From the NCBI GenBank assembly GCA_963664405.1, contig OY761158.1:5792001-5856000 (forward strand): a DNA stretch of 64,000 bases, written 5' to 3'. A model generated the notes under the pieces. The model saw only the letters and a program-made list of their open reading frames with translations. It searched no databases and was not told the DNA's origin. The translations under genes and the position numbers were made by a program. Position 1 is the first letter of the stretch, and the number at the start of each line of letters is the position of its first letter. Source of the stretch: Thermoanaerobaculia bacterium. Lineage in GTDB: Bacteria; Acidobacteriota; Thermoanaerobaculia; Multivoradales; Multivoraceae. Positions 48,038 to 62,481 of the stretch are shown one piece after another.

Positions 48038-50186
48038 TCATGGTTCACTCGACTGTCTCTGGAGCTGGGCATCTCTCTTTTCGATCGCTCGCGAAATGAT
48101 GAAGGCGCGGATTGCGCTCAGGGACTCCTCGTCCAGTGAGTCGCCGAAGCCGGGCATACCCAACTCCTGCTTCGTGCCATCGTGAACGATCTCGGAGAAT
48201 TTCTTGTGGGTGTCGAGCGTCATCATTCTGAGGTCGGGCGCCGCGGCGGCGATCACCATGGGCACGCCGAGGCCGCGATGGCAGTTGGCGCAGATCTGGT
48301 GGTAGAGCGCGTTCCCGCGATCCACAGTCTCGGCCGACGCTGTGAGTGTTGGCGGTTGCGGAATCTCGGTACTGCGCAGCGGCGGCTGCGGTAGCGTCTG
48401 CGCGCCGCCGAGCTTGAACACGATCAGCTTCCCAGGCGAGTCGTACTCGGCACCGCTGCCGGCGATCGCCGCGAGATACTGGATGCCATCGATCATGTAG
48501 GTGACAGGCGCTGCAGAGAACGAGCCGTACGCGTCGAATCGCCAGAGTAGCTCACCGCTGTCGGTGTTGTAAGCCGAGAGCTGCCCTTTCCCATCTCCCT
48601 GAAAGAGTAGGCCGGTCACCGTTGCCAGGACTCCGCCGTTGAACCCGGTGGGTAGCTCCAGCTTCCAGCGCGACTCTCCGGAAAGCGGGTCGAAGGCGAT
48701 CAAGAAGCCTCTGGTCTCGGGGCGCGGTGGGGCCTTCGCTTCCAGTGCGGAGCGATAGGGGCCCAATCCCAGGCCGAGACTTAGTCCGATCTTATTGATC
48801 TCGTACTTGCCGGTCGCGACAAAGGTCTCGTCGAGCGAGTAGAAATTCGCGTAGTCGTGGTAATAGAAATACATGATGCCGCTCGCTTCGTCGAACGACA
48901 TCGGCTCCCAGTTGTGGGCGCCCGCGTTTGCGGGGAGGATCCACTGCGGGTCGGTCTCGTACACAACGTCAGGGTTCTCCACCGGTCGTCCGGTCTCCAT
49001 GTCGACGTGGGTCGCCCAGGTGATGCCCTCGGTGTAGGGGTGGGCACGCAGGAGCTCGCCGTCGGTGCGATCGATGACGTAGAAGAAGCCGTTCTTCGGT
49101 GCCTGGAGGAGTACCTTGCGCTCTACTCCGTCGACGGTCATGTCCCCGAGAGCGATAGGCATGGCAGAGCTGTAGTCCCAGTTGTCGCCAGGCACGGTCT
49201 GGTAGTACCAGTTCATTCGGCCGCTCTCGACGTCGACCGAGACGATGGCGGTCAGAAACAGATCGTCGCCGCCACCGGGCGAGCGGATCTGGCGAGGCCA
49301 GGGAGCGCCGTTGCCGACGCCGATGTAGAGGCTTCCCAGCTCCTCGTCATAGACCAGCGAGCTCCACGCGGTCCCTCCTCCGCCGTACTTCCACCACTCT
49401 CCCCCCCCAGGTCTTGGCGGCGAGCTCCATCTCCGGGTGCTCGAAAGGCTTGGAGGGGTCCCCGGGTACCAGGTAGAAGCGCCATGCCACTTCTCCGCTG
49501 TCGGCATCGTAAGCGGTGACATAGCCGCGGCGGTGGCCGCTCTCGGAGCTGCCCTGGCCGATGAAGACCTTGCCCGCTGCGGCGCGAGGTGCACCGGTGA
49601 TGTTGAAGCGACCCAGCGCGGACGGGTGATAGGTGTCGACGTCCCAGACCTCCTCGCCGGTAGCGGCATCGACCGAGATCAAGCGGCCGTCGAAAGTGGC
49701 GACGTAGACCCTACCCTTGTAAACCGCGACGCCTCGATTCGCGGCCCCACCACAGCAGGCGTATTTGATGTACTCGCGGTCGGTCTTGGGGTCGTAAGTC
49801 CAGATCTCCGCCCCGGTGCCGGCATCGAGCGCGTAAATCACGCTCCAACCGTTGGTCACGTACATGACGCCGTCGACGATGAGGGGCGTGCTTTGCATTT
49901 TGTCTCGGCCATCGCCGATGGCCTTGAACCAGGCGACGCCGAGCTCCTGCAAGCCGTCTCGGCCGATCTGGGTCAGCGTGGAGAAGCGCTGCTCTTTGTA
50001 GGTTTGCCCGTAGGTCAGCCAACTGCCGGGCTCGTCCATGGCCGCGCGCTTGATGCGCTCGTCGTCGACTCGACCGGCAGGCGGCGACTCTGTCGGCTCG
50101 GTCGAGCGCCCGACGTCCACTTCTGAGCGCCCGCCGCAGCAAACGAGGGAGAGTGCAACCAGGGCTGTGACGGCTCTTGTCGTCAA
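48038..50186 (-). pseudogene. Quinohemoprotein alcohol dehydrogenase (type II PQQ-ADH with cytochrome c); +1 frameshift in the C8 run at 49401-49408
   Basis: N-part RFSTLTQI, ACCGGAANRG, ITGAP; C-part GGGGTAW, GNGAPW, WDY, QAPKNGFFY, CANCH heme motif; removing one G restores TWGGEWWK. Confidence 0.88.
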
Positions 50187-51515: not shown

Positions 51516-52586
51516 ATGCGCAGACGAATTCTGAGCTCGATCTTTGTCGTCGCCCTACTTGCTCTGACCGGAACAGCGGTCCTGGCCGCCGCGGCCGACG
51601 AGAGCTGGACGGTCTCTCGTAACGACTACGGCCATCCCGACCTCGAGGGCGTCTGGGCGAATAACAATGCAATCCCGATGGAGCGGCCCGCGGAGTGGGA
51701 GGGCAAAGACCGCCTGACCGAAGCCGAGCTCCAGGAGCTCGTCGAGGCGGCGAAGGAAGCCTCCAACCCCGGAGAGGATGCGCTCTTTGGCGACCAGTTG
51801 GTGCTCGCCGCCATCGCCAAGACGAAAGCCGAGAGCTACGATCCGGCGACCGGCAATTACAATCAGTTCTGGGTGGCCGAGCGCGACTTCTCGAACCGCA
51901 CATCTCTCGTCGTGGAGCCGCCGGACGGGAGGATCCCGCCGCTGACGGAGGCGGCGCGGCGCAAGATGTGCGCGCAGATCGAGTACGCGAGCGAGCACCC
52001 TGCCGACTCGTGGCTGGATCGGTCGCTGTCGGAGCGCTGTGTCAGCTTCGGCGTACCCTTCGTCGGAGCCGGCTACAACGGTTATTTCCAGATCTTTCAG
52101 AGCTTGGACCACGTCGTCATCGTGCAAGAGATGATCCACGACGCGCGCATCATTCCCCTCGTCGACAGGCCATCCCTCAGCGACGACATCCGCCTCTTAC
52201 ACGGCGATTCCCGGGGCCACTGGGACGGAGACACCCTGGTCGTGGAGACCAGGAATTACTCTCCCAAGAGCAGCTTCAGGGGCTCGTCGGAGAATCTACA
52301 ACTGACCGAGCGCTTCACTCGTCTCGGGCCTACGCACCTCGAGTGGGAGCTCACGATCAGCGATCCCAGCACTTGGACGGCTCCTTGGAGCATCTCGATA
52401 CCGCTCAAGGGTACCGACGAGGCGATCTTCGAGTACGCCTGTCACGAGGGCAACTACGGCATGTCCGGCATCTTGGCCGGCCATCGCGCGCACGAGGCCC
52501 AAGGGAAGGCTCCACAACAGGCCCCGCTCAACCTCCGCTACCAGACTCTCGGTTGTGAAGAGACGCCCTCCGCGGGCGCCGACTAG
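51516..52586 (+). CDS. Uncharacterised secreted protein, 'YEYACHEGNY' family (copy 3)
   Basis: GHPDLEGVW, RTSLVVEPPDGRIP, ERC, GDSRGHWDGDTLVVET, FEYACHEGNY; RBS AGGAGG. Confidence 0.85.
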   Translation: MRRRILSSIFVVALLALTGTAVLAAAADESWTVSRNDYGHPDLEGVWANNNAIPMERPAEWEGKDRLTEAELQELVEAAKEASNPGEDALFGDQLVLAAIAKTKAESYDPATGNYNQFWVAERDFSNRTSLVVEPPDGRIPPLTEAARRKMCAQIEYASEHPADSWLDRSLSERCVSFGVPFVGAGYNGYFQIFQSLDHVVIVQEMIHDARIIPLVDRPSLSDDIRLLHGDSRGHWDGDTLVVETRNYSPKSSFRGSSENLQLTERFTRLGPTHLEWELTISDPSTWTAPWSISIPLKGTDEAIFEYACHEGNYGMSGILAGHRAHEAQGKAPQQAPLNLRYQTLGCEETPSAGAD

Positions 52587-54301: not shown

Positions 54302-55456
54302 TTATGCACGAACGGAGGGGCCAGTGCTCCCGTCCGATGTATCTCCGTCACGCGGGATCTTCCGCCTCTCTGATCGTGCCTCGGCGAGCAATCGTTTCGC
54401 CCGAATCTCTTCTCCCTCGGGATTCGACCGTTCTGCCTGCCGCAGATACTCCAGGGCCTTATCGGGCTGCCCTTTGATCAGCCAGATCGTGCCCAGGAGG
54501 CCCCATGCGTACTCGCCGAAGAGTCGGCGGTCATAGCCGAGATCGCGCGGCCGATCGGGATCGCCTCGATCGATCAGATCCTCGAGGTATCGGCAGGCTA
54601 TATCCCAACGGCTTTCAGCGACTCTTTGGCGAGCCGCCCACCAAAGGATCAGGGGATCGCTAGGGTGCCGTTCCAGGGCCTCGTCGACCAACGCGGCGGC
54701 GTCCATCAGCTCGGTGTCGTCGGAGAAGTGCAGGGCGAGCAGGTCAGAGTAGGCGAGCGCGTCACCGGGTGATGGCTCGCCGGCTCGCACCACTGCTAGA
54801 CCTTGTCGAAAGGCGATCTCTGCCGCCGCGGCGTCGCCCAGTGCCAGCTCCGCTTCACCCAGGGCATGCCACAGATAAGGTCGCTCGGGGTCGCTCTTGA
54901 TGGCTTTTCTCAGCAGAGGAAGGTTACGAACGTGCTTCGCGGTGAGATCTCCCTCATAGCCGAGGTGCTCGATGAATATCGGCGCGTCGATGATGCGAGC
55001 GGATTCTTCGCGCACGATTCGGTGAACATCTGGGAGCACCGTCTCGTGGATTGCTCCCCTGAAGCGCAGGTCGGCGCGATTTCTGAACAGGCGATATTCG
55101 AGATAGGGAGTCAGGCCGCTTGCGGCTCGAAATCCGACCCGCGCCGCGACGATGCCGGGATCCTCGAGGGCTTGCCTCAGATCTCCTTGAAGATCGATTC
55201 GCTCGTCGGCGTCAATGTAGAGAATCCACTCTGTGCCCGCGGCGTCGAGACCCGTGTTTCGAGCCTGAGAGAAGTCGTCACGCCAAGGCTGTTGGAGCAC
55301 TGTGGCCCCGAACGAACGGCAGATCTCTACGCTCGAGTCCTGGGAGCCGGTGTCGACGACTACGACTTCATCGACGATGTCTTGCAGAGCACCGAGGCAG
55401 GCAGGGAGGTGTCGGGCCTCGTCGCGGACGATCAGTGCAGCAGCGATCCCGGCCAA
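54302..55456 (-). CDS. GT2 glycosyltransferase with TPR region (SunS/flagellin-GT-like architecture)
   Basis: LIVRDEA..L..CL, VVVDTGS, W.DDFS.ARN, IDADE, IHE, HLGY, then TPR-like helices. Confidence 0.88.
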   Translation of the reverse strand: MAGIAAALIVRDEARHLPACLGALQDIVDEVVVVDTGSQDSSVEICRSFGATVLQQPWRDDFSQARNTGLDAAGTEWILYIDADERIDLQGDLRQALEDPGIVAARVGFRAASGLTPYLEYRLFRNRADLRFRGAIHETVLPDVHRIVREESARIIDAPIFIEHLGYEGDLTAKHVRNLPLLRKAIKSDPERPYLWHALGEAELALGDAAAAEIAFRQGLAVVRAGEPSPGDALAYSDLLALHFSDDTELMDAAALVDEALERHPSDPLILWWAARQRVAESRWDIACRYLEDLIDRGDPDRPRDLGYDRRLFGEYAWGLLGTIWLIKGQPDKALEYLRQAERSNPEGEEIRAKRLLAEARSERRKIPRDGDTSDGSTGPSVRA

Positions 55457-55463
55457 GGCGGCT

Positions 55464-55631
55464 CTACGCTGGGATCGAAGAATTCGACTGCGCCGCGGCA
55501 GGGCGGCTCATCAGACCCGCCATCGTGAAGCTTGCGACGACAGGAGCTACGAAGCTTGTCGATGCGGCCTTACGAATGAAGTCACGGCGCGATTCGTCGA
55601 ACTCTTTGAGGATCTCGTCGTTCTTTGGCAT
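55464..55631 (-). CDS. 55-aa peptide, candidate RiPP precursor: MPKNDEILKEFDESRRDFIRKAASTSFVAPVVASFTMAGLMSRPAAAQSNSSIPA
   Basis: Manually translated (below the track's 60-aa cutoff); GGAG upstream; fills the gap between the kinase-like and GT2 genes on the same strand. Confidence 0.8.
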   Translation of the reverse strand: MPKNDEILKEFDESRRDFIRKAASTSFVAPVVASFTMAGLMSRPAAAQSNSSIPA

Positions 55632-55670
55632 CAGCTGAGCTCCGGGTTGCAGGTTCTCGATGGAACTATT

Positions 55671-56540
55671 CTAGCGCAAGAAGGTGTCCTGTTCCCAGGC
55701 CTTCAGGATGGGACTGTAGCTCTCGTGGGCGACCTCTTCGAGGTGAGCGACCCCGTCCTTGGGCTCTCCGAGCTTCAACCTGTGGCCTCCGTACCGGCTC
55801 AGACGGGTCGCTGCCGCGACCAGCGTCGACGGGGACTGAACCCAACCCAGCGAGCTTTCGACCAGGCTCCGGAGCGTTTCGAAGATCGGAAGGCGCTGAC
55901 TCTCGGTCGCGCCATCATGATTGGCTTCGAGGACGATGACTCCGTCTATGGGATGCGGAGAGATGACCCACTCGAAGCCGGCTTCACCCGGGTCGAAACC
56001 CACGACTCTTTGACCGACTGTCGAAGCGATGGGCTGGTCCGCCAACAAGGGGGCGATTTCCGGGACCAGGCTTTCGATACCTGTCTTGAGATGCAGTCGG
56101 CGGGGTACAGCCAAGACCTGGCTGTCGCGCTCGAGCACCATCTCATCGCCCTCGATGGTGTAGCCGCTGTAGAGGAGGGCCGTAGCCAGTGTCGTTTTGC
56201 CTACTCCCTTCTCTCCTAACAGCAAGAGTCTTGCGCCGCGGATGTTGACGAGGGCGCCGTGGAACACCGACCACCCGGCGAGCGAGTATCGCTCGAGCAC
56301 GCGGCTGTGAAGTCGGAGGTAGATCGTCCACAAGACATCGTCGACCTGGTGTAGGACATCGACGAGATCGCCGTCCTCCCGCACCAGCCAAGGCCCTTCG
56401 CCTTCGACTTGATAGCGCATCACCTTCCGAACTTCGACATCCTGCCGCGCGCTCGTCGGCAAGTAGTTGAGGCGCTCGGCCAGGTTCGGGTCGTCGACCT
56501 CCAGCTCGACCCGCACACTGAGGAGTTGAAAGGAGGTCAC
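55671..56540 (-). CDS. HPr kinase-related P-loop kinase
   Basis: FHGALV....RLLLLGEKGVGKTTL...L...GY....DE; start overlaps the PqqD stop. Confidence 0.82.
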   Translation of the reverse strand: MTSFQLLSVRVELEVDDPNLAERLNYLPTSARQDVEVRKVMRYQVEGEGPWLVREDGDLVDVLHQVDDVLWTIYLRLHSRVLERYSLAGWSVFHGALVNIRGARLLLLGEKGVGKTTLATALLYSGYTIEGDEMVLERDSQVLAVPRRLHLKTGIESLVPEIAPLLADQPIASTVGQRVVGFDPGEAGFEWVISPHPIDGVIVLEANHDGATESQRLPIFETLRSLVESSLGWVQSPSTLVAAATRLSRYGGHRLKLGEPKDGVAHLEEVAHESYSPILKAWEQDTFLR

Positions 56541-56839
56541 TCGCTGCCGGTGTCGATCTGTCGCACCACACCCTCGCGTAACAGCAGATCCAGGCCGTCT
56601 TCGAGGGTGCTGAGTGGCGAAGCGTCAAGGGAGAATAGCTCGGTGACGATTCGGCCCATCTCCTCGAGACTGCGAGAACCGTCGCAGAGCTCGAAGAGAA
56701 CCGCTGCTGTCGCATTCAAGTGATGAATGCGATCGGTCCGGGGGTCGAAGACCACCATCCCCTCCTCGGCCTCGTGAGCCTCGAGACCGGGGATTCGCTC
56801 GAATGTTCTGGCGTCACTCAATTTGCGAGAGGCTATCAT
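56537..56839 (-). CDS. PqqD family protein (RiPP recognition element)
   Basis: MVVFDP.TD.IHHLNATAAVLFELCDGSRS.EE....L..L...G.V. Confidence 0.9.
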   Translation of the reverse strand: MIASRKLSDARTFERIPGLEAHEAEEGMVVFDPRTDRIHHLNATAAVLFELCDGSRSLEEMGRIVTELFSLDASPLSTLEDGLDLLLREGVVRQIDTGSE

Positions 56840-58103
56840 CGAGATCGGAGCCGTGAGGCCAGTGCGCTCCGGGTCCAGTCGGCGATTGAGCGAGAGACTT
56901 GCTCTACTTGGTAGCGCTCCTCGACTGCTCTTCGAGCGTTGCGAACGAGCCGGGCCGAGAGCTCCGGGTCTTTCAGAACACGAACCGCTGCCTGGGCCAG
57001 ATCGTCGTTCGAAGAGGCGAGCAGGAGATCGGTGTCGTTGCGCAGATCCAGGCCAGCGGCGGCTAATGGCGTCGCCACCACCGGCACTGCATTCGCAGCC
57101 GCCTCCAGGATCTTGAGGCGGCTTCCACCGCCAGCACGGAGGGGCACGACAGCTACGTCGGCTTGCCGGTACTGTGGGCTGAGATCGTTCACGGCTCCGG
57201 TCGACTGGACCCCAGGCAAGCGAGAAAGCTGGTCCAGAGCTTCCTTTCGTCCGCCCCCGACGAGCGTCAGGTCCGCGCTTGCAATTCGCTCCCTAGTGCG
57301 CGGCAGAATCTCGCACGCGAGCCGCTGCGCCGCGTCGAGGTTCGGGAGGTAGCCGAAGTTGCCGACGTAGAGCAGTCGTTTACCGCCGACGCTTCTAGCC
57401 TCTCTGGGCGGGCATCGAACTGCGTTCGGCAATACCGCGACCTTCTCGATGAGGCAAGACCGTGCCAGTGATCTGGAGTCGGATTCGGCTGCTGCCGCAA
57501 CACCGTCGAAGAGTGGCGAGCAGACCGCGCCGAAGCGGCGAAAACTCTCTGCTTCAGCTAGACACTTGAACGACGAGGTGTGCTCATTGCGAAGTTGGTG
57601 GAGGGCGGCGATCGACTCCAGGGTGGCGACGTCGTCTTCGTCCGCGTCGAGCAGCAGGCAGGGTCGCGATTCAGACTCTGCGAAGGGTAGAGCGGCCCCA
57701 GCCATATACAGGCGCAAGATCACGACGACATCGAAGCTCTCCTCAAAAACATGCTGCGAAGCCGGTGGCCGAGAGCCGGCGATGCTTGCCTGGCCCTTTC
57801 TGGCAGTGCCCGAGAGGCTCTTACGATGCTTCGACCGAGTCCGCTCTGCAACCAGCCGACCGCGGACTCATGCGGCCCAAGAAGCGGTACGACTTCGACG
57901 CGGTCGCAGTGCTGTGAAGCCCACTCCGAATTACCGATCTCGGCTTCCGGGTCAGACACAGGTAGCACGGCGACGCTCAGCGCTCCGACTTGCGCGAGTC
58001 CCTCCACCGCGAGGGCGGCCCGCATCGCCAGGCCATTGCCCGTTGGCGACGGGATGATCGGCGAGATCAGCAGAAGGCGGGTGGCCCCCGATGCTAAGCT
58101 CAA
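56836..58103 (-). pseudogene. GT4 glycosyltransferase; frameshift at the A5 run 57745-57749
   Basis: N-part LLLISPIIP.P.GNG..MR; C-part LLYVGNFGY.PN.DA, VVPLRAGGGSRLKILEA...VPVVAT; one extra T joins the frames; start uncertain. Confidence 0.8.
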
Positions 58104-58114
58104 CGCGCTCTCCG

Positions 58115-58974
58115 ATGCCCGGTATCCCCCGCATTGCGCACTTTGTTTTCGGGCTGCGTCAGCAGCACGAGCCCTTTCATCCGCTCCACTTTTTGGCATT
58201 GGAGACCTGTCGCCGGGTGCTTCAGCCCGATGCCATCTACCTCCACTACCATTGGCTTCCTTTCGGGGCGCTGTGGGACACCATCCGGCCGCATCTCACC
58301 CTGGTGCGTGTTGATCGGGTCGAGGCTGTCGACCGCGCAACCTACGACGATCGGCTGGTGCCGGAAGAATACCGTTATGCGCACCACGCAGACTTTTTGC
58401 GCCTCGATGCTCTGATCGAGCACGGAGGTATTTACGCCGATATCGATACGCTTTTTTTGCGACCGCTTCCCGAGTCGCTGTGGCGCCAGCCCTTCGTGAT
58501 CGGCCGCGAGCCTGACGTGGTCGATGAGCACACCGGCGAAAGGCGTGCGTCACTCTGCAATGCGCTTCTGATGTCGAGGCCGCCGCCGACTTCGCTCGAG
58601 CCTGGCGAGAGGAGATGGCGTCGGAGCTGGATGGCTCTTGGAGCAACCACTCTGGATTTCTCGCCCAGCGCTTGAGCGAGGAGCGGCCGCAGTCTGTCCA
58701 CGTAGAGCCGGAGGAGTCGTTCTTTCCTGTGCCCTCGACGCCCGCGGGACTGGCCTCGCTGTTCTCCGTAGAGCCGCTCTCCATAGGGTCCAGCTACTCC
58801 ATCCACCTCTGGGAGCACTTGTGGTGGCGGCACGAGCGGACGGACTTTTCTCAGCACCACGGTGATGAGATCACCTTCGCTTTCCTGCGCCGGTCGACGA
58901 CGGCGCTGGCTCGTTTGGCGAGGCCTTGCTTGCCCGAGCTCGACGTCGACGACTTGATCCGGCGCACCCCGTGA
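58115..58974 (+). pseudogene. GT32-like DXD glycosyltransferase (Gly_transf_sug); -1 frameshift near 58582
   Basis: IPRIAHFVFG, AHHADFLRL..L..HGGIYADID, CNA; continues W..HS...HLWE in the next frame. Confidence 0.8.
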
Positions 58975-61403
58975 GCTCGGCGGGACGAGGAATCCGCTGG
59001 GTGTCCCTGATGCCCGGTTGTGGGTACGGTGATGCGGCAGCGCTATACCTCTCTGGTCTCGACCGGCTCGGAGTTCCCATCAGCTGGACACCGATCTCAC
59101 GCGGGCTCGAGACTGTCGGCGCGAGAGATCGCCTGCCGGGATCGAGCCCTGTTGTCGACGAACGCATGGTGGATCTGTGGCAGAAGCCGATAGTGGCGGA
59201 CACTCTAGTGATCGACGTTCCTCCCCCGAAGCTCCACAAGCACTGGCTTGCGAAATACCCCGATCTGACGCCCTACGCATACGTAGCCTGGGAGATGGAC
59301 CGGCTCCCTCGCGGATGGGCCCGGGTTCTCAATCGCTTCGAGAGCATCTTTGTTCCGTCGGAGTTCAACCGCAGCGTGATGAGAGAGTGTGGGATCGATC
59401 GCCCGATCGACGTCATCCCGCACATCGCCCGACGGGTCGAGCCGGTGGCGACACCGAGACTGCTCAGCACTCTCGCCGATGATGACTTCGTCTTCTACAC
59501 GATTGGAACGTGGACCGATCGCAAGGCGATGGCGGAAACAGTACGGGCTTACCTGGAGACGTTTCGTGGCGACGAGCGTGTCGTTCTGGTGGTCAAGACC
59601 GATTCGGTCGACAGGACTCAGCGGAGTGGATCGAGTGTCTGGCGGCGTAACAGCTCTGCGTCTCGGTCGAGGATGGTCTGGTGGACGCTGGCGCGGCTCC
59701 TGGCCGAGTATCCGGGGGCCGGCAGAGTGCATCTCGTCGCGGGGGAAGTGAGCCCTCGCACCATCGACGGGATCCACAGCCGAGGCGATTGCTTTTTGTC
59801 CCTCACCCGCAGCGAAGGGTGGGGCCTGGGTCCTTTCGAGGCCCTGCTGTTCGGCAATCCGGCAATTGTGACGGGTTGGGGCGGGCAGATGGACTACCTG
59901 GGTTCGGACTATCCTCTCGCGCTTCGCTATCAGCTCGAGGATGCGCCGGCCGACGAGTACGATCGAGGAGTCCCTGCGCCGCGTTGGGCGCGAGCCGATC
60001 GCGGGCACGCCGGCGAGCTGCTGCGATGGGTCTTCGAGCATCGAGCCGAGGCTCGAGCTGATGCTGACTCCCTGCGCCGGTCGCTGTCGACGACCTATTC
60101 GGCCGATGCCGTCTGTCGGGAGCTCGCTCGGGGACTGGGCTTTCCGACAGGGACACTCACCGATGGCAACCCGCCAATCTCGTGGGATCGATACCAACCC
60201 GTCTCTGTCGACGCTGCTGTCGATGACTTGATGGATGCCTGCAGTAAGTATCTCGCGGGCGAAAGGGCCAAGGTGACCCGCGTTTGGAAAGGCGATCCAA
60301 AGCGCATCGCCGAGTTGGCGTCGGCTCATCGCCTACAGCCCTTGTTGAGCTCGCTGGTGCGGAGCGGGCGGCTGGAGCAGAATCTCCCACAGGATCTGCT
60401 CGACGACTGGTTCGGCGCCTACTGTTTGACGGCGTTGCGAAACGGCCGCTTGTTGCAGGTGCTTGGCGAGCTCACCGCGCGCTGCCACGCCGCGGGTCTT
60501 CGACCCCTCGCCCTGAAGGGGCCGGTAGACATCGCTCGCGGCTACCGCGACCCGGGGCTTCGTCCCATGGTCGATCTCGATATTCTCTGCCGGGCCCTCG
60601 AAGTGGAGCCCGTGCTCGGTCATTGCTACGATCTCGGGTTTCGCTACAAACGTCAGACAACTCCCTTTCATGTCGAGCTTTGCCATCCCGACAACGACGC
60701 CACAGTAGAAGTCCATTTCGACCTCTGGGAAGAGGTCGCGAATCGAGAGCGTTTTCTCGAGGAGCTGTGGCGCGACGCCGAAAGTTGCGAGGTCGCCGGT
60801 GTTTGTTTCGAGGCCCCATCGGCCGCGTGCTCCCTAGTTCTCGGCGTCGCGCACCTTGTGCATCACGACTTCCTGATCGGCATGAAGCCCATCCTCGATT
60901 TCGCCCTCCTGCTCACCAAGAGCCCTGCAACGGATGGAGACCGTGTCCTCTCCATGGCTAGACTCGGTGATCTCCACAAAGAGTTAGGCAGTCTCAGTAG
61001 GGCGCTCATTCGGGACCTCGCCTGGAGCTCCACAGAGCCGCCCTGGCTCGAGTCGGGCTTGATCGCCGGCGAAGAGGGCCTCGACCGGACCCTTGCCATC
61101 CAACTCCTTGCTCACTGGCGCCGGCTGCCCGAGTGGGCTGGCCCCGGCGCCTTCGACGAGATCGCGACCCGGCCCGGTCTCGTCGGCAAGCTCGGCTTCG
61201 CGCGCCGTGTACTTTTACCGCCACCAAGAGAGTTCCGACTTGCTTCGAGAGAGAGAGGTGCCGCGGGCGCTCGTCTCAAGCACGTCGCGGCGGCGGTGGC
61301 GGCTGTGGTAGACGCAGCGTTGCATCGCAGCTGGCGCGCGCGTAGGCGGGGCGGCTCACTGAAGCGCGAGCTTCATCATCGCCGGGCCGCCAGGCGAGAG
61401 TGA
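58971..61403 (+). CDS. Fusion of GT4 glycosyltransferase and NTP_transf_5-like nucleotidyltransferase
   Basis: GYG, WE.DRLP, PSEFN, RSEGWGL..FEA; C-half LKGP.....Y.DPGLRPMVDLDIL, VEVH; GTGA overlap with upstream gene. Confidence 0.85.
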   Translation: MSSAGRGIRWVSLMPGCGYGDAAALYLSGLDRLGVPISWTPISRGLETVGARDRLPGSSPVVDERMVDLWQKPIVADTLVIDVPPPKLHKHWLAKYPDLTPYAYVAWEMDRLPRGWARVLNRFESIFVPSEFNRSVMRECGIDRPIDVIPHIARRVEPVATPRLLSTLADDDFVFYTIGTWTDRKAMAETVRAYLETFRGDERVVLVVKTDSVDRTQRSGSSVWRRNSSASRSRMVWWTLARLLAEYPGAGRVHLVAGEVSPRTIDGIHSRGDCFLSLTRSEGWGLGPFEALLFGNPAIVTGWGGQMDYLGSDYPLALRYQLEDAPADEYDRGVPAPRWARADRGHAGELLRWVFEHRAEARADADSLRRSLSTTYSADAVCRELARGLGFPTGTLTDGNPPISWDRYQPVSVDAAVDDLMDACSKYLAGERAKVTRVWKGDPKRIAELASAHRLQPLLSSLVRSGRLEQNLPQDLLDDWFGAYCLTALRNGRLLQVLGELTARCHAAGLRPLALKGPVDIARGYRDPGLRPMVDLDILCRALEVEPVLGHCYDLGFRYKRQTTPFHVELCHPDNDATVEVHFDLWEEVANRERFLEELWRDAESCEVAGVCFEAPSAACSLVLGVAHLVHHDFLIGMKPILDFALLLTKSPATDGDRVLSMARLGDLHKELGSLSRALIRDLAWSSTEPPWLESGLIAGEEGLDRTLAIQLLAHWRRLPEWAGPGAFDEIATRPGLVGKLGFARRVLLPPPREFRLASRERGAAGARLKHVAAAVAAVVDAALHRSWRARRRGGSLKRELHHRRAARRE

Positions 61404-61410
61404 CAGATCG

Positions 61411-62481
61411 CTACCGGCCCGAGTCAGGAGTGGCTCGCACTTGATTCTCTTCGAAACGGGCGCCACGCAGAGTGTTGCCCATAGAGTAGTTTCCTTCGTG
61501 GCATGCGTACTCGTACATCTTGTCTGGAGTCGCCGGCCAGCTGTATTCGCCGCTGTAGGGCGTCTCGTAGTCGCCGTTTTCGAGCGTGAACTGGTACAAC
61601 AGCGTGTCCTCGTCGGTGAGGGTCAAGCGCTCGACGACGCGCTGATCGCGAGGTGGGGAGGGCTCGCCGAAGAGAGTGGTGGCCAGCCACTCTTCTTCGA
61701 GAAAGTTTGTGGTTTCGACGACCAAAGTGTCGCCCTCCCACCAGCCGATCGAGTCTCCGCCTCGCGAAAGCAGCCCCGGCGGTCTGTGCTCGGGCTTGGC
61801 CGATGGAGTGCCCAAGCGAATGATCCGCGCCTCGTGCATCCACTCGACCAGGATCATGACGTAGCTCTCCGTTTGCATGATGGTCTTGATGTTGTTGTAG
61901 TTCTTGGGCAGCACCGGGATCGTCGCCTCTAGCGAAAAGATGCAGCGATCGGCGATCGACAGCGACTCGGGCCCGTCATAAGGGCCGACTTCGCGGTCGA
62001 GCCACCAAGCCGTACCGGTGTTTTTCTTGGAGAAGGGATAGAGACCGCCTCTGCGCTCTCGGCCCCTCTCGGTGAGTGGCGGAAAGCGACCGTTGGGTGG
62101 ATCGGTGATGAGAGAGGTCCGGAACCTGCCATCTACGGCAACGGCCTGGGTGCCTCGGTCCATGTAGAAGTCGTTGTAGGCGCCTATGCTGCCACCAGCG
62201 GGGGGTGCCTGGCGATTCGGATCGCTGGCTTTCGCACGCTGCGCGCTCCTGGTGGCTGCGCTCTGCTGGATCTCCTCAGCCTCGGCTGGCGTCAGGAAGA
62301 GTCGATTCCCGTACTCGGGAAGCCTCTGCATCGGTGTCAGGGTGCCGATGTCGTAATTTCCCGAGAGGTTGGGTCTGCCCTGGAGCGTTCTCGGGATGTC
62401 GCCTGCCGATGCAATCTCGAGCGGGCAGATTACGAACATGAATACGAAACCAAGTAGCCAGCGAGTTGCGCTGTCGTTCAT
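61411..62481 (-). CDS. Uncharacterised secreted protein, 'YEYACHEGNY' family (copy 4)
   Basis: GRPNLSGNY, RTSLITDPPNGRFP, DRC, GDSIGWWEGDTLVVETTNF, YEYACHEGNY. Confidence 0.85.
   Translation of the reverse strand: MNDSATRWLLGFVFMFVICPLEIASAGDIPRTLQGRPNLSGNYDIGTLTPMQRLPEYGNRLFLTPAEAEEIQQSAATRSAQRAKASDPNRQAPPAGGSIGAYNDFYMDRGTQAVAVDGRFRTSLITDPPNGRFPPLTERGRERRGGLYPFSKKNTGTAWWLDREVGPYDGPESLSIADRCIFSLEATIPVLPKNYNNIKTIMQTESYVMILVEWMHEARIIRLGTPSAKPEHRPPGLLSRGGDSIGWWEGDTLVVETTNFLEEEWLATTLFGEPSPPRDQRVVERLTLTDEDTLLYQFTLENGDYETPYSGEYSWPATPDKMYEYACHEGNYSMGNTLRGARFEENQVRATPDSGR

Follow-up and report, generated by a model that had tools for sequence, protein, structure and literature searches.

The linear polyphosphorylated peptides (LPPs) of Bacillota appear, by gene content and precursor motifs, to be the closest known system to the one reported here. 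In the text of the article that describes them (Popov et al., Nat Commun 2026; PMC13381572), the components are LppA, LppB, LppK, LppN, LppS and LppD, and the clusters contain a SipW-like signal peptidase I (LppS), a discrete RRE (LppB; RRE, recognition element of peptides that are made by ribosomes and modified after translation, or RiPPs), an HprK-like kinase (LppK), an uncharacterised nucleoside triphosphate (NTP) transferase (LppN) and an MsbA-like pump. The clusters often lie inside polysaccharide or capsule loci, and the precursors, 35-200 aa long, share a conserved N-terminal YxxPxVLxHQxIxFETxxS logo and have variable C-termini. LppB binds the leader at Y(-16) and P(-13) and offers the cleavage site to LppS, and LppK adds up to four phosphates to Ser3 of a core beginning AQSNWK; LppN was inactive in the authors' host, the final LPP product is unknown and LPPs are stated to be restricted to Bacillota. 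The same text describes paeninodin/pseudomycoidin-type lasso peptides, in which an HprK-like kinase and a nucleotidyltransferase tailor a Ser of an RRE-bound precursor. The present analysis concerns a 55-aa precursor peptide gene and its gene cluster in a Thermoanaerobaculia bacterium (Acidobacteriota; GenBank GCA_963664405.1, contig OY761158.1, positions 5,792,001 to 5,856,000). The whole stretch analysed, 64,000 nt, is called the window, and all positions are given in it.

A preliminary description of this DNA had proposed a hidden precursor with a leader containing a twin-arginine translocation (Tat)-like motif and an RRE-binding motif, a signal peptidase-like site and a short Ser-rich core. 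The open reading frame (ORF) starts with an ATG at 55631 and ends with the stop codon at 55464-55466 on the minus strand, and its 55 codons translate to MPKNDEILKEFDESRRDFIRKAASTSFVAPVVASFTMAGLMSRPAAAQSNSSIPA. The coordinates and all four parts, SRRDFIRK (residues 14-21), FVAPVV (27-32), AAA (45-47) and QSNSSIPA (48-55), are present exactly as described; residues 22-41 are hydrophobic or small and are followed by A45-A-A47. The gene and its parts are:

55464..55631, minus strand: 55-aa precursor peptide gene, stop codon included, with syntenic homologues in two other genomes (G008 and G068) and in 34 of 35 related loci.
55640..55643, minus strand: GGAG ribosome-binding site, 8 nt upstream of the peptide ATG.
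55569..55592, minus strand: Tat-like motif S14-R-R-D-F-I-R-K21, assigned by sequence and family conservation, with curated Tat models below threshold.
55521..55553, minus strand: conserved hydrophobic block F27-VAPVVASFT-M37, which holds FxxPxV; putative RRE-docking strand and signal h-region.
55491..55499, minus strand: A45-A46-A47, putative signal peptidase I site (A-x-A), with predicted cleavage; Ala in 70% of the family at -3 and in 66% at -1.
55467..55490, minus strand: putative core Q48-SNSSIPA55, carrying S49-N50 and N50-S51-S52, motifs of a kind enriched here in the family.

Several lines of evidence indicate that the ORF is a real, conserved gene. Besides its ribosome-binding site, it has a GC content at third codon positions (GC3) of 0.68, against 0.68-0.77 in the adjoining genes. 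G008, from another genus of the same family as the source, encodes a 54-aa peptide with 69% identity, flanked by genes for an HprK-like kinase and for a GT2 glycosyltransferase with a TPR domain (GT2-TPR), and the identity of the kinases of the two genomes is 49%. Over leader codons 1-48 the comparison gave dN 0.197 and dS 1.004 (dN/dS about 0.2), indicating purifying selection on the amino acids of the leader. The residues past AAAQ diverge, SNSSIPA in the source and APNQSP in G008, so that the proposed division into a conserved leader and a short, variable tail is supported. Conservation, on which the preliminary description had made its reading depend, was found in G008, in the family and in synteny, and the conserved small gene that it had placed near a PqqD/RRE gene is borne out by homologues, synteny and dN/dS. 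A single-sequence query of a 5.8-billion protein set returned the peptide itself as the sole match. An identical 55-aa predicted protein is already deposited in a public protein collection, on 2 contigs; the gene is therefore small but not hidden.

To define the family, a profile was built from 10 peptides and searched against the 5.8-billion protein set and against a 1.84-billion set. The first search returned 154 proteins of 29-123 aa (E<=1e-3), annotated solely as 'hypothetical' or 'twin-arginine translocation signal domain-containing protein'; the second returned 1113 cluster representatives at E<=1e-3, 298 of them at <=1e-10. No curated Pfam or NCBIfam model covers these peptides. The nearest Protein Atlas clusters, unnamed and about 60 aa long (0.95-0.96), and the nearest named ones, Tat-signal-bearing proteins (0.87-0.90), serve as leads only. 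Literature searches, which did not cover the supplementary data of PMC13381572 with their possible lists of related non-Bacillota clusters, turned up no account of the peptide family or of any Tat-type leader in a RiPP, and the terms twin-arginine, Tat, Acidobacter, signal peptide, TPR and SunS did not occur in the article text searched. The family is thus large, absent from curated models and, within those searches, undescribed.

The sequence constraints within the family were examined in 261 unique members aligned on the invariant Pro. The n-region follows [R 59% / K 23%]-R(97%)-x-F(67%)-[L/V/F/I]-[K/R]-[R/K], with R-R in 212 of the 261, and the hydrophobic block reads G(82%)-x-A-F(92%, Y 5%)-A-V-P(100%)-V-[V/I/M/L 99%]-A-S(88%, T 11%)-F(99%)-S-M(87%)-x-G-L. 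A(70%)-x-A(66%) sits 15-17 residues past the Pro and is followed by Q (34%). The positions kept best across the family are those of the motifs named in the preliminary description. What comes after A-x-A has a median length of 27 residues, and is at most 15 residues long in 107 members and at most 10 in 67. Compared with shuffles of the same 18 residues, this tail contains S-N in 104 of 261 members (shuffled mean 40), N-x-S/T in 146 (58) and S-N-x-S/T in 60 (7), counts that describe the family and are not a probability because members are mutually related. The tail is therefore variable without being random. The G008 tail carries N-Q-S, so the N-x-S motif is kept in both the source and G008, and one peptide subfamily ends in P-H-G-S.

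The same leader also heads proteins of up to 429 aa. Among 142 representatives newly found in the 1.84-billion set, 51 were longer than 130 aa and 33 were of 70 aa or less. A Pfam domain was recognized in 14 of the 51 long members, mostly of surface or secreted type (DUF11 in 6; also He_PIG, Big_3_5, CHRD, Gmad2, Peptidase_S74, Hint and pentapeptide repeats). Some shorter members end in a PEP-CTERM-like hydrophobic-basic anchor, and other tails are mucin-like Ser/Thr-rich, Gly-rich, Pro-rich or rich in His/Lys/Asp. The leader behaves as a portable N-terminal module on exported-type domains, therefore a role in secretion is supported, and the short peptides are minimal members of a broader substrate family. 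The preliminary description had named as a risk that the ORF might be the truncated signal peptide of a longer gene. This fits to the limited extent that longer proteins of secreted type begin with the leader elsewhere; the short form, however, occurs widely and is itself subject to purifying selection. In the Rokubacteria-type loci L052, L063, L069, L072, L077 and L080, a Peptidase_S74 (endosialidase chaperone) domain starts at SDRNAKE, directly past a short S-N-x-T tail. Peptidase_S74 domains cut themselves off at their first Ser, as in phage tail spikes; if this happens here, the S74-bearing long members would yield a short tail too.

The genes around the peptide suggest what might be done to it. 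On the minus strand the order is GT4, PqqD-family protein, HprK-like kinase, peptide and GT2-TPR; the DXD-motif glycosyltransferase (DXD-GT) and GT1-PF14907 genes are divergent, on the plus strand:

54302..55456, minus strand: GT2 glycosyltransferase with a C-terminal TPR domain, 384 aa (PF00535 2e-15, plus TPR families).
55671..56540, minus strand: HprK-like P-loop kinase, 289 aa (PF07475 2.5e-6, TIGR00679 1e-6, TIGR04352 4e-6, all below cut-offs).
56537..56839, minus strand: discrete PqqD-family RRE, 100 aa (PF05402 7.9e-8, above cut-off).
56836..58199, minus strand: GT4 glycosyltransferase in two frames, 57720-58199 and 56836-57723 (PF13692 4e-23).
58091..58675, plus strand: DXD-motif glycosyltransferase (Gly_transf_sug; PF04488 7e-9), conserved in L046, L048, L051 and L088.
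58926..61403, plus strand: GT1 domain fused to a PF14907 nucleotidyltransferase, 825 aa (PF14907 5e-37).

Among solved structures, the kinase-family profile matched P-loop and HprK fragments only. For the RRE the best relative was the lasso B1 protein TfuB1 (6jx3, 5.9e-5); the LPP and paeninodin RRE entries named in the text of PMC13381572 were not listed at E<=1, being too distant or missing from the copy searched. The GT2-TPR gene begins 7 nt past the peptide stop, and its product resembles the flagellin O-GlcNAc transferase GmaR (1.8e-19) and the sublancin S-glycosyltransferase SunS (1.3e-15), reaching 70.7 bits (1e-19) with the SunS family TIGR04195, against a cut-off of 350. The preliminary description had suggested that the system does without a dedicated protease and transporter, and none was found in the cluster or around it: the ORFs of at least 170 aa at 39.5-62.5 kb include neither a peptidase nor an ABC transporter, and no S26/SipW peptidase or ABC pump lies there or in the flanks of 8 longer loci. 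The flanks encode PQQ dehydrogenases, sulfatase-type enzymes, an FAA hydrolase and proteins of no known type.

A search with kinase relatives gave 35 loci, some of them near-duplicates: 8 in species genomes, with hosts in Acidobacteriota, Vicinamibacterales, Acidimicrobiales, Deltaproteobacteria/Syntrophus and Rokuibacteriota, and 27 from metagenomes. The unpublished genome G083 is not a basis for any claim made here. By the peptide profile, 1-4 family peptide genes adjoin the kinase orthologue in 34 of the 35, and the contig of the remaining locus stops at the last codon of the kinase gene. A strict regular expression had missed homologues in six loci, which were recovered by listing the ORFs. 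The commonest order is PqqD(RRE)-kinase-peptide(s)-GT2/TPR. A GT2-TPR gene is present in 27 loci. Of the eight that lack one, seven are on contigs with little sequence left past the peptide genes; the eighth, L066, has 3.3 kb more sequence beyond its peptide genes and no GT2-TPR match in it. The preliminary description had advised looking for family peptides near PqqD genes, and a PqqD gene lies upstream of the kinase in 18 of these 35 kinase-peptide loci, and most of the other contigs begin with, or immediately ahead of, the kinase or an upstream peptide gene. PF14907 genes are in or beside the cluster in L046, L048, L050, L051, L052 and L061. The complete arrangement of eight genes seen in the window recurs in the Acidimicrobiales loci and in G008, which fits a cluster that may have moved between genomes as a unit. 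Among 401 sampled genomes of the phylum, the sole strong kinase orthologue besides the window's own (2.5e-37) and likewise the sole strong peptide match (1.3e-23) were both in G068; there were five weak peptide-profile matches in other Acidobacteriota (E 4.5e-7 to 2.5e-4).

The related loci vary in their peptide genes, and several copies per locus, like the conserved leader and the variable tail, are a RiPP-like trait. L057, L059, L060, L061, L065, L066 and L079 have 2-4 peptide copies each; tandem precursor genes with Thr-, Gly- or Pro-rich tails were seen in L066 (4 copies), L065, L061, L057 and L060, and in L061 the kinase-peptide pair is duplicated and a radical SAM gene lies upstream. In G041, genes for GT2-TPR, two GT1, DXD-GT, GT4, kinase and PqqD stand beside a 165-aa DUF11 member of the family. 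Between this member and GT2-TPR (L003 776-1159, minus strand) is a 127-aa ORF with a signal-like N-terminus and a PEP-CTERM-like hydrophobic-basic C-terminus; the family members P0093, P0113 and P0111 have similar PEP-CTERM-like ends.

The GT4 gene of the window deserves separate mention. It is a single, colinear ORF in G041 (L088:14499-15917), and the frame change in the window lies near 57745-57771. Contigs of three organism-labelled runs match the window sequence with no differences (X3 and X4 over 55300-58300, X6 over 56991-58300), and in a depth-3 contig of a marine-sediment metagenome (X8) a single additional G follows 57750. The source has intact genes for the peptide, RRE, kinase, GT2-TPR and nucleotidyltransferase. 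The best match of the window GT4 is a glycosyltransferase model of the PEP-CTERM/XrtA system (3e-35, below cut-off).

The preliminary description had taken FVAPVV for an RRE-type leader motif. This proposal is favoured by the invariant core of the family motif and by its near-fit to the RRE-binding motif [Y/W]xxPx[L/V/I/F/A] given in the article text (PMC13381572), from which FVAPVV departs in the F at position 1. It had also suggested modelling the peptide with PqqD. With custom alignments of 14 and 58 rows, the complex of the PqqD protein and the peptide scored 0.55, and the best of 3 controls scored 0.01, which is weak support; the runs agreed in at least 93% of contacts, and the partner pLDDT was at least 66. 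Of 157 solved complexes, 116 attain the pass mark of this score, as do 2 of 215 mismatched pairs; the range up to 0.60, however, holds only 18 of the 157 along with both passing mismatches. The pass may also reflect likeness, because RRE-leader complexes have already been solved. From the motif and the model we infer that the FxxPxV strand of the leader is bound by the PqqD-type RRE.

The Tat consensus is S/T-R-R-x-F-L-K, which SRRDFIRK fits. The twin-arginine part of the preliminary description stands as far as the motif and the family-wide second Arg (97%) are concerned, but the threshold of the curated Tat model was not reached. Tat export is proposed because the leader is built like a twin-arginine signal peptide. 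The source genome encodes 1 TatC, 3 TatA/B/E and 3 LepB-type signal peptidases, all above cut-offs, and TatC was found in 4 of 5 other host genomes. The archaeal-type signal peptidase (TIGR02228) had 0 matches in the 97% complete source genome.

Based on these data, the ORF probably encodes the precursor, or substrate, for RRE-guided phospho/glyco-modification by a system related to the LPPs; the peptide would be exported by the general Tat machinery and set free by signal peptidase I. The discrete PqqD-type RRE would bind the leader block FxxPxV...SF in the cytoplasm and present the tail to the HprK-like kinase, which would phosphorylate a Ser of the S-N or N-x-S/T motif; by analogy with the LPPs, S49 of A-Q-S-N is the likeliest. 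The tail would then be elaborated by the PF14907 nucleotidyltransferase, the GmaR/SunS-like GT2-TPR and the other glycosyltransferases. Being GmaR/SunS-like, GT2-TPR may also glycosylate Ser/Thr of N-x-S/T directly. The modified peptide would leave by the general Tat system, and signal peptidase I would cut after A45-A-A47, giving a decorated octapeptide Q-S-N-S-S-I-P-A that begins with Gln. Ser/Thr rather than Asn is the expected acceptor because the Asn is replaced by His in one subfamily (P-H-G-S). For this reason, and because the cluster has no gene for a periplasmic oligosaccharyltransferase, N-glycosylation of Asn by such an enzyme was weighed but not adopted. The preliminary interpretation was thus right in outline, with its dual-looking leader, short Ser-bearing core and lack of a dedicated protease or pump, but it anticipated neither the chemistry of the kinase, nucleotidyltransferase and glycosyltransferases nor the connection with LPPs.

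More tentatively, a single leader of about 47 residues may serve as RRE docking strand, twin-arginine export signal and signal-peptidase substrate at once. PqqD would act like a Tat proofreading chaperone until a phosphoglycan has been built on the 6-15-residue tail, and the Tat pore would export the bulky finished cargo with no dedicated protease or pump, in what would be a widespread RiPP class outside Bacillota. We regard this fuller version as possible, and hold it with less confidence than the assignment of the gene to a modification system.

A number of observations weigh against the scheme of a modified, Tat-exported peptide, most of them concerning export. The Tat-signal model TIGR01409 scores the source peptide at 11.3 bits, below its cut-off of 16.7, and at E<=1 it matches 16 of 58 family members (PF10518, 2 of 58). 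About one fifth of the family (47 of 261) has K-R only and no R-R; Tat signals with K-R do occur in nature. Conservation of the h-region goes far past what export alone needs, and since signal h-regions are normally less conserved, the hydrophobic block could serve recognition only. The basic residue R43 in the c-region of the source peptide is not conserved in the family, and the fifth of the other host genomes, a metagenome-assembled genome (MAG), gave no TatC match. The export route is the weakest link because Tat models are not passed, K-R members occur and the h-region is over-conserved; a membrane-anchored, uncleaved product or a Sec route is possible. For docking, F27 is outside the published Y/W set for the first motif position, and in LPPs the Tyr hydroxyl makes a hydrogen bond, according to the article text (PMC13381572). 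For the modification, the acceptor is not uniform, given that A-P-N-Q-S of G008 has no Ser before the Asn and one subfamily ends in P-H-G-S, and the pathway may be impaired or incomplete in the source strain because its GT4 gene is frameshifted.

The alternative that best survives, although we consider it unlikely, is that the leader serves only for recognition and as a membrane anchor. The same enzymes would modify the peptide, which would remain uncleaved and make no use of Tat; with a signal anchor or exit by Sec, the tail would carry the phosphoglycan at the membrane surface as a peptide-anchored glycan or a polymer primer. An h-region much more conserved than in ordinary signal peptides, sub-threshold Tat matches, the 47 K-R variants and a glycosyltransferase-rich cluster all suit this explanation, as does the location of LPP clusters in capsule loci in the published account (PMC13381572). 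Against it stand the A-x-A then Q pattern, with its Ala conserved at 66-70%, and the finding that RRxF[L/V][K/R] is the best-kept part of the n-region; in addition, the long members, with their soluble domains of surface type and their sorting anchors at the C-terminus, require an export signal that can be cleaved.

Less probable still is that the leader is a specialised signal peptide of secreted glycoproteins and that the enzymes form a general pre-export phosphorylation and glycosylation system, with the 55-aa form a minimal or decayed substrate, a remnant or decoy whose product has no function of its own. The leader on proteins of up to 429 aa, the 51 of 142 new representatives above 130 aa, the full enzyme set beside a 165-aa DUF11 protein in G041 and the frameshifted GT4 of the source genome would all be expected in that case. 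Yet short forms are common and conserved (107 of the 261 members have a predicted mature part no longer than 15 aa, and among the 142 new representatives 33 are of 70 aa or less), the leader has a dN/dS of about 0.2, and the tail N-x-S is kept in the source (G000) and G008; moreover, several long forms appear built to shed their C-terminus, with S74 right past an S-N-x-T tail, if that domain cleaves itself as it does elsewhere. It is very improbable that the ORF is non-coding or due to chance in an intergenic stretch rich in GC, or that it encodes an ordinary small protein exported by Tat and without relation to its neighbours. The small size of the ORF and its overlap by longer ORFs on the opposite strand speak for this, but conservation, selection, the ribosome-binding site and invariant synteny across four phyla contradict it.

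If the preferred reading of a modified, Tat-exported peptide is true, it would describe a RiPP route in which the general Tat and signal-peptidase machinery is put to use, explain how exported products could come from clusters with no protease or transporter, and extend polyphosphorylated-peptide chemistry from Bacillota to at least four other phyla. A case of an RRE binding an export signal becomes testable, and a searchable precursor family is now defined for genome mining (leader profile A3/A6). Its tiny natural substrates (6-15 residues) could help to find the function of the PF14907 transferase, which was beyond the reach of the LPP study as its text presents it (PMC13381572).

Two further features flank the cluster. 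A PQQ-dependent dehydrogenase gene at 48038-50186 (minus strand) is seemingly split: the ORF 49347-50186 covers positions 1-221 of the PQQ profile, and the overlapping ORF 48038-49669 covers the profile from position 220 onwards and has a cytochrome c domain as well. Either a second frameshift or an error of assembly could account for this. Two ORFs of 356 aa, at 51516-52586 (plus strand) and 61411-62481 (minus strand), lie on either side of the cluster, have no Pfam match and a signal-like N-terminus, share 'YACHEGNY' and are similar by eye; they may be paralogues of an exported protein with no assigned function.

Among known systems, the HPr-rel-A system of NCBIfam (TIGR04352 kinase A and TIGR04353 PqqD-family chaperone) likewise pairs an HprK-related kinase with a PqqD-family chaperone, but the window proteins score 26.1 against 200 bits and 21.1 against 35 bits at the equivalog cut-offs, which makes them relatives and not members. 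Tat signal peptides have proofreading chaperones such as TorD, DmsD and NapD. The source leader shares with such signals S-R-R-x-F-x-K, a moderately hydrophobic h-region and A-x-A, and here too a small cytoplasmic protein is proposed to hold the signal until the cargo is finished; in contrast, the cargo is just 8 residues long, the h-region is conserved in sequence across phyla, the proposed binder has a PqqD fold and is not of TorD/NapD type, and the curated Tat threshold is not reached. Like the glycocin enzymes (SunA/SunS, ThuS) and GmaR, GT2-TPR has a GT2 catalytic domain followed by helical repeats, and enzymes of GmaR/SunS type glycosylate a peptide or protein directly. The 70.7 bits of GT2-TPR against the SunS cut-off of 350 separate it from the glycocin systems, and the source peptide has no Cys or helical hairpin, the source system has neither a double-glycine leader nor a SunT-type transporter, and modification is proposed to depend on an RRE and a kinase.

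Phosphorylated and glycosylated lasso peptides of the paeninodin/pseudomycoidin type have the same kinase/nucleotidyltransferase pair, and the window RRE is closest to the lasso B1 protein TfuB1; lasso kinases target a C-terminal Ser, and one subfamily of the present peptides ends in Ser. The cluster ORFs of the window, however, include no B2 cysteine protease and no ATP-dependent macrolactam cyclase, and the source peptide cannot be a lasso because its 8-residue core has no Asp/Glu ring acceptor.

The LPPs, as the article text presents them (PMC13381572), share the most with the window. Both cluster types have a discrete RRE (PqqD-type in the window), an HprK-like kinase and an NTP transferase (PF14907 at 5e-37 in the window) and are embedded among glycosyltransferases, and in both the precursors, one to several per cluster, are conserved towards the N-terminus and variable towards the C-terminus. 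Both leaders carry an aromatic-xxPxV motif and would be removed by a type I signal-peptidase mechanism, which is putative for the source peptide. The A-Q-S-N at the start of the LPP core, whose Ser3 is polyphosphorylated, corresponds to A47-Q48-S49-N50 of the source peptide, and the S-N enrichment of the family falls there. Set against the same account, the Tat-leader family has no SipW-like LppS in the cluster, its flanks or the source genome, and an MsbA-like pump was not found in the window flanks (39.5-62.5 kb, ORFs of at least 170 aa) or in the 8 longer loci. Compared with the published logo, the source leader does not contain the remainder of the LPP pattern (VLxHQxIxFET); it shows a twin-arginine motif, a hydrophobic block and A-x-A, and its family motif has F instead of Y. 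The loci with Tat-type leaders contain a near-constant gene for a GmaR/SunS-like GT2-TPR, and their hosts are Acidobacteriota, Acidimicrobiales, Deltaproteobacteria and Rokubacteria, whereas those of the LPPs are Bacillota. Set beside these systems, the cluster therefore seems, in outline and with its mechanism unproven, to join LPP-like RRE, kinase and nucleotidyltransferase chemistry to a Tat-type leader and a constant GmaR/SunS-like glycosyltransferase in hosts outside Bacillota.

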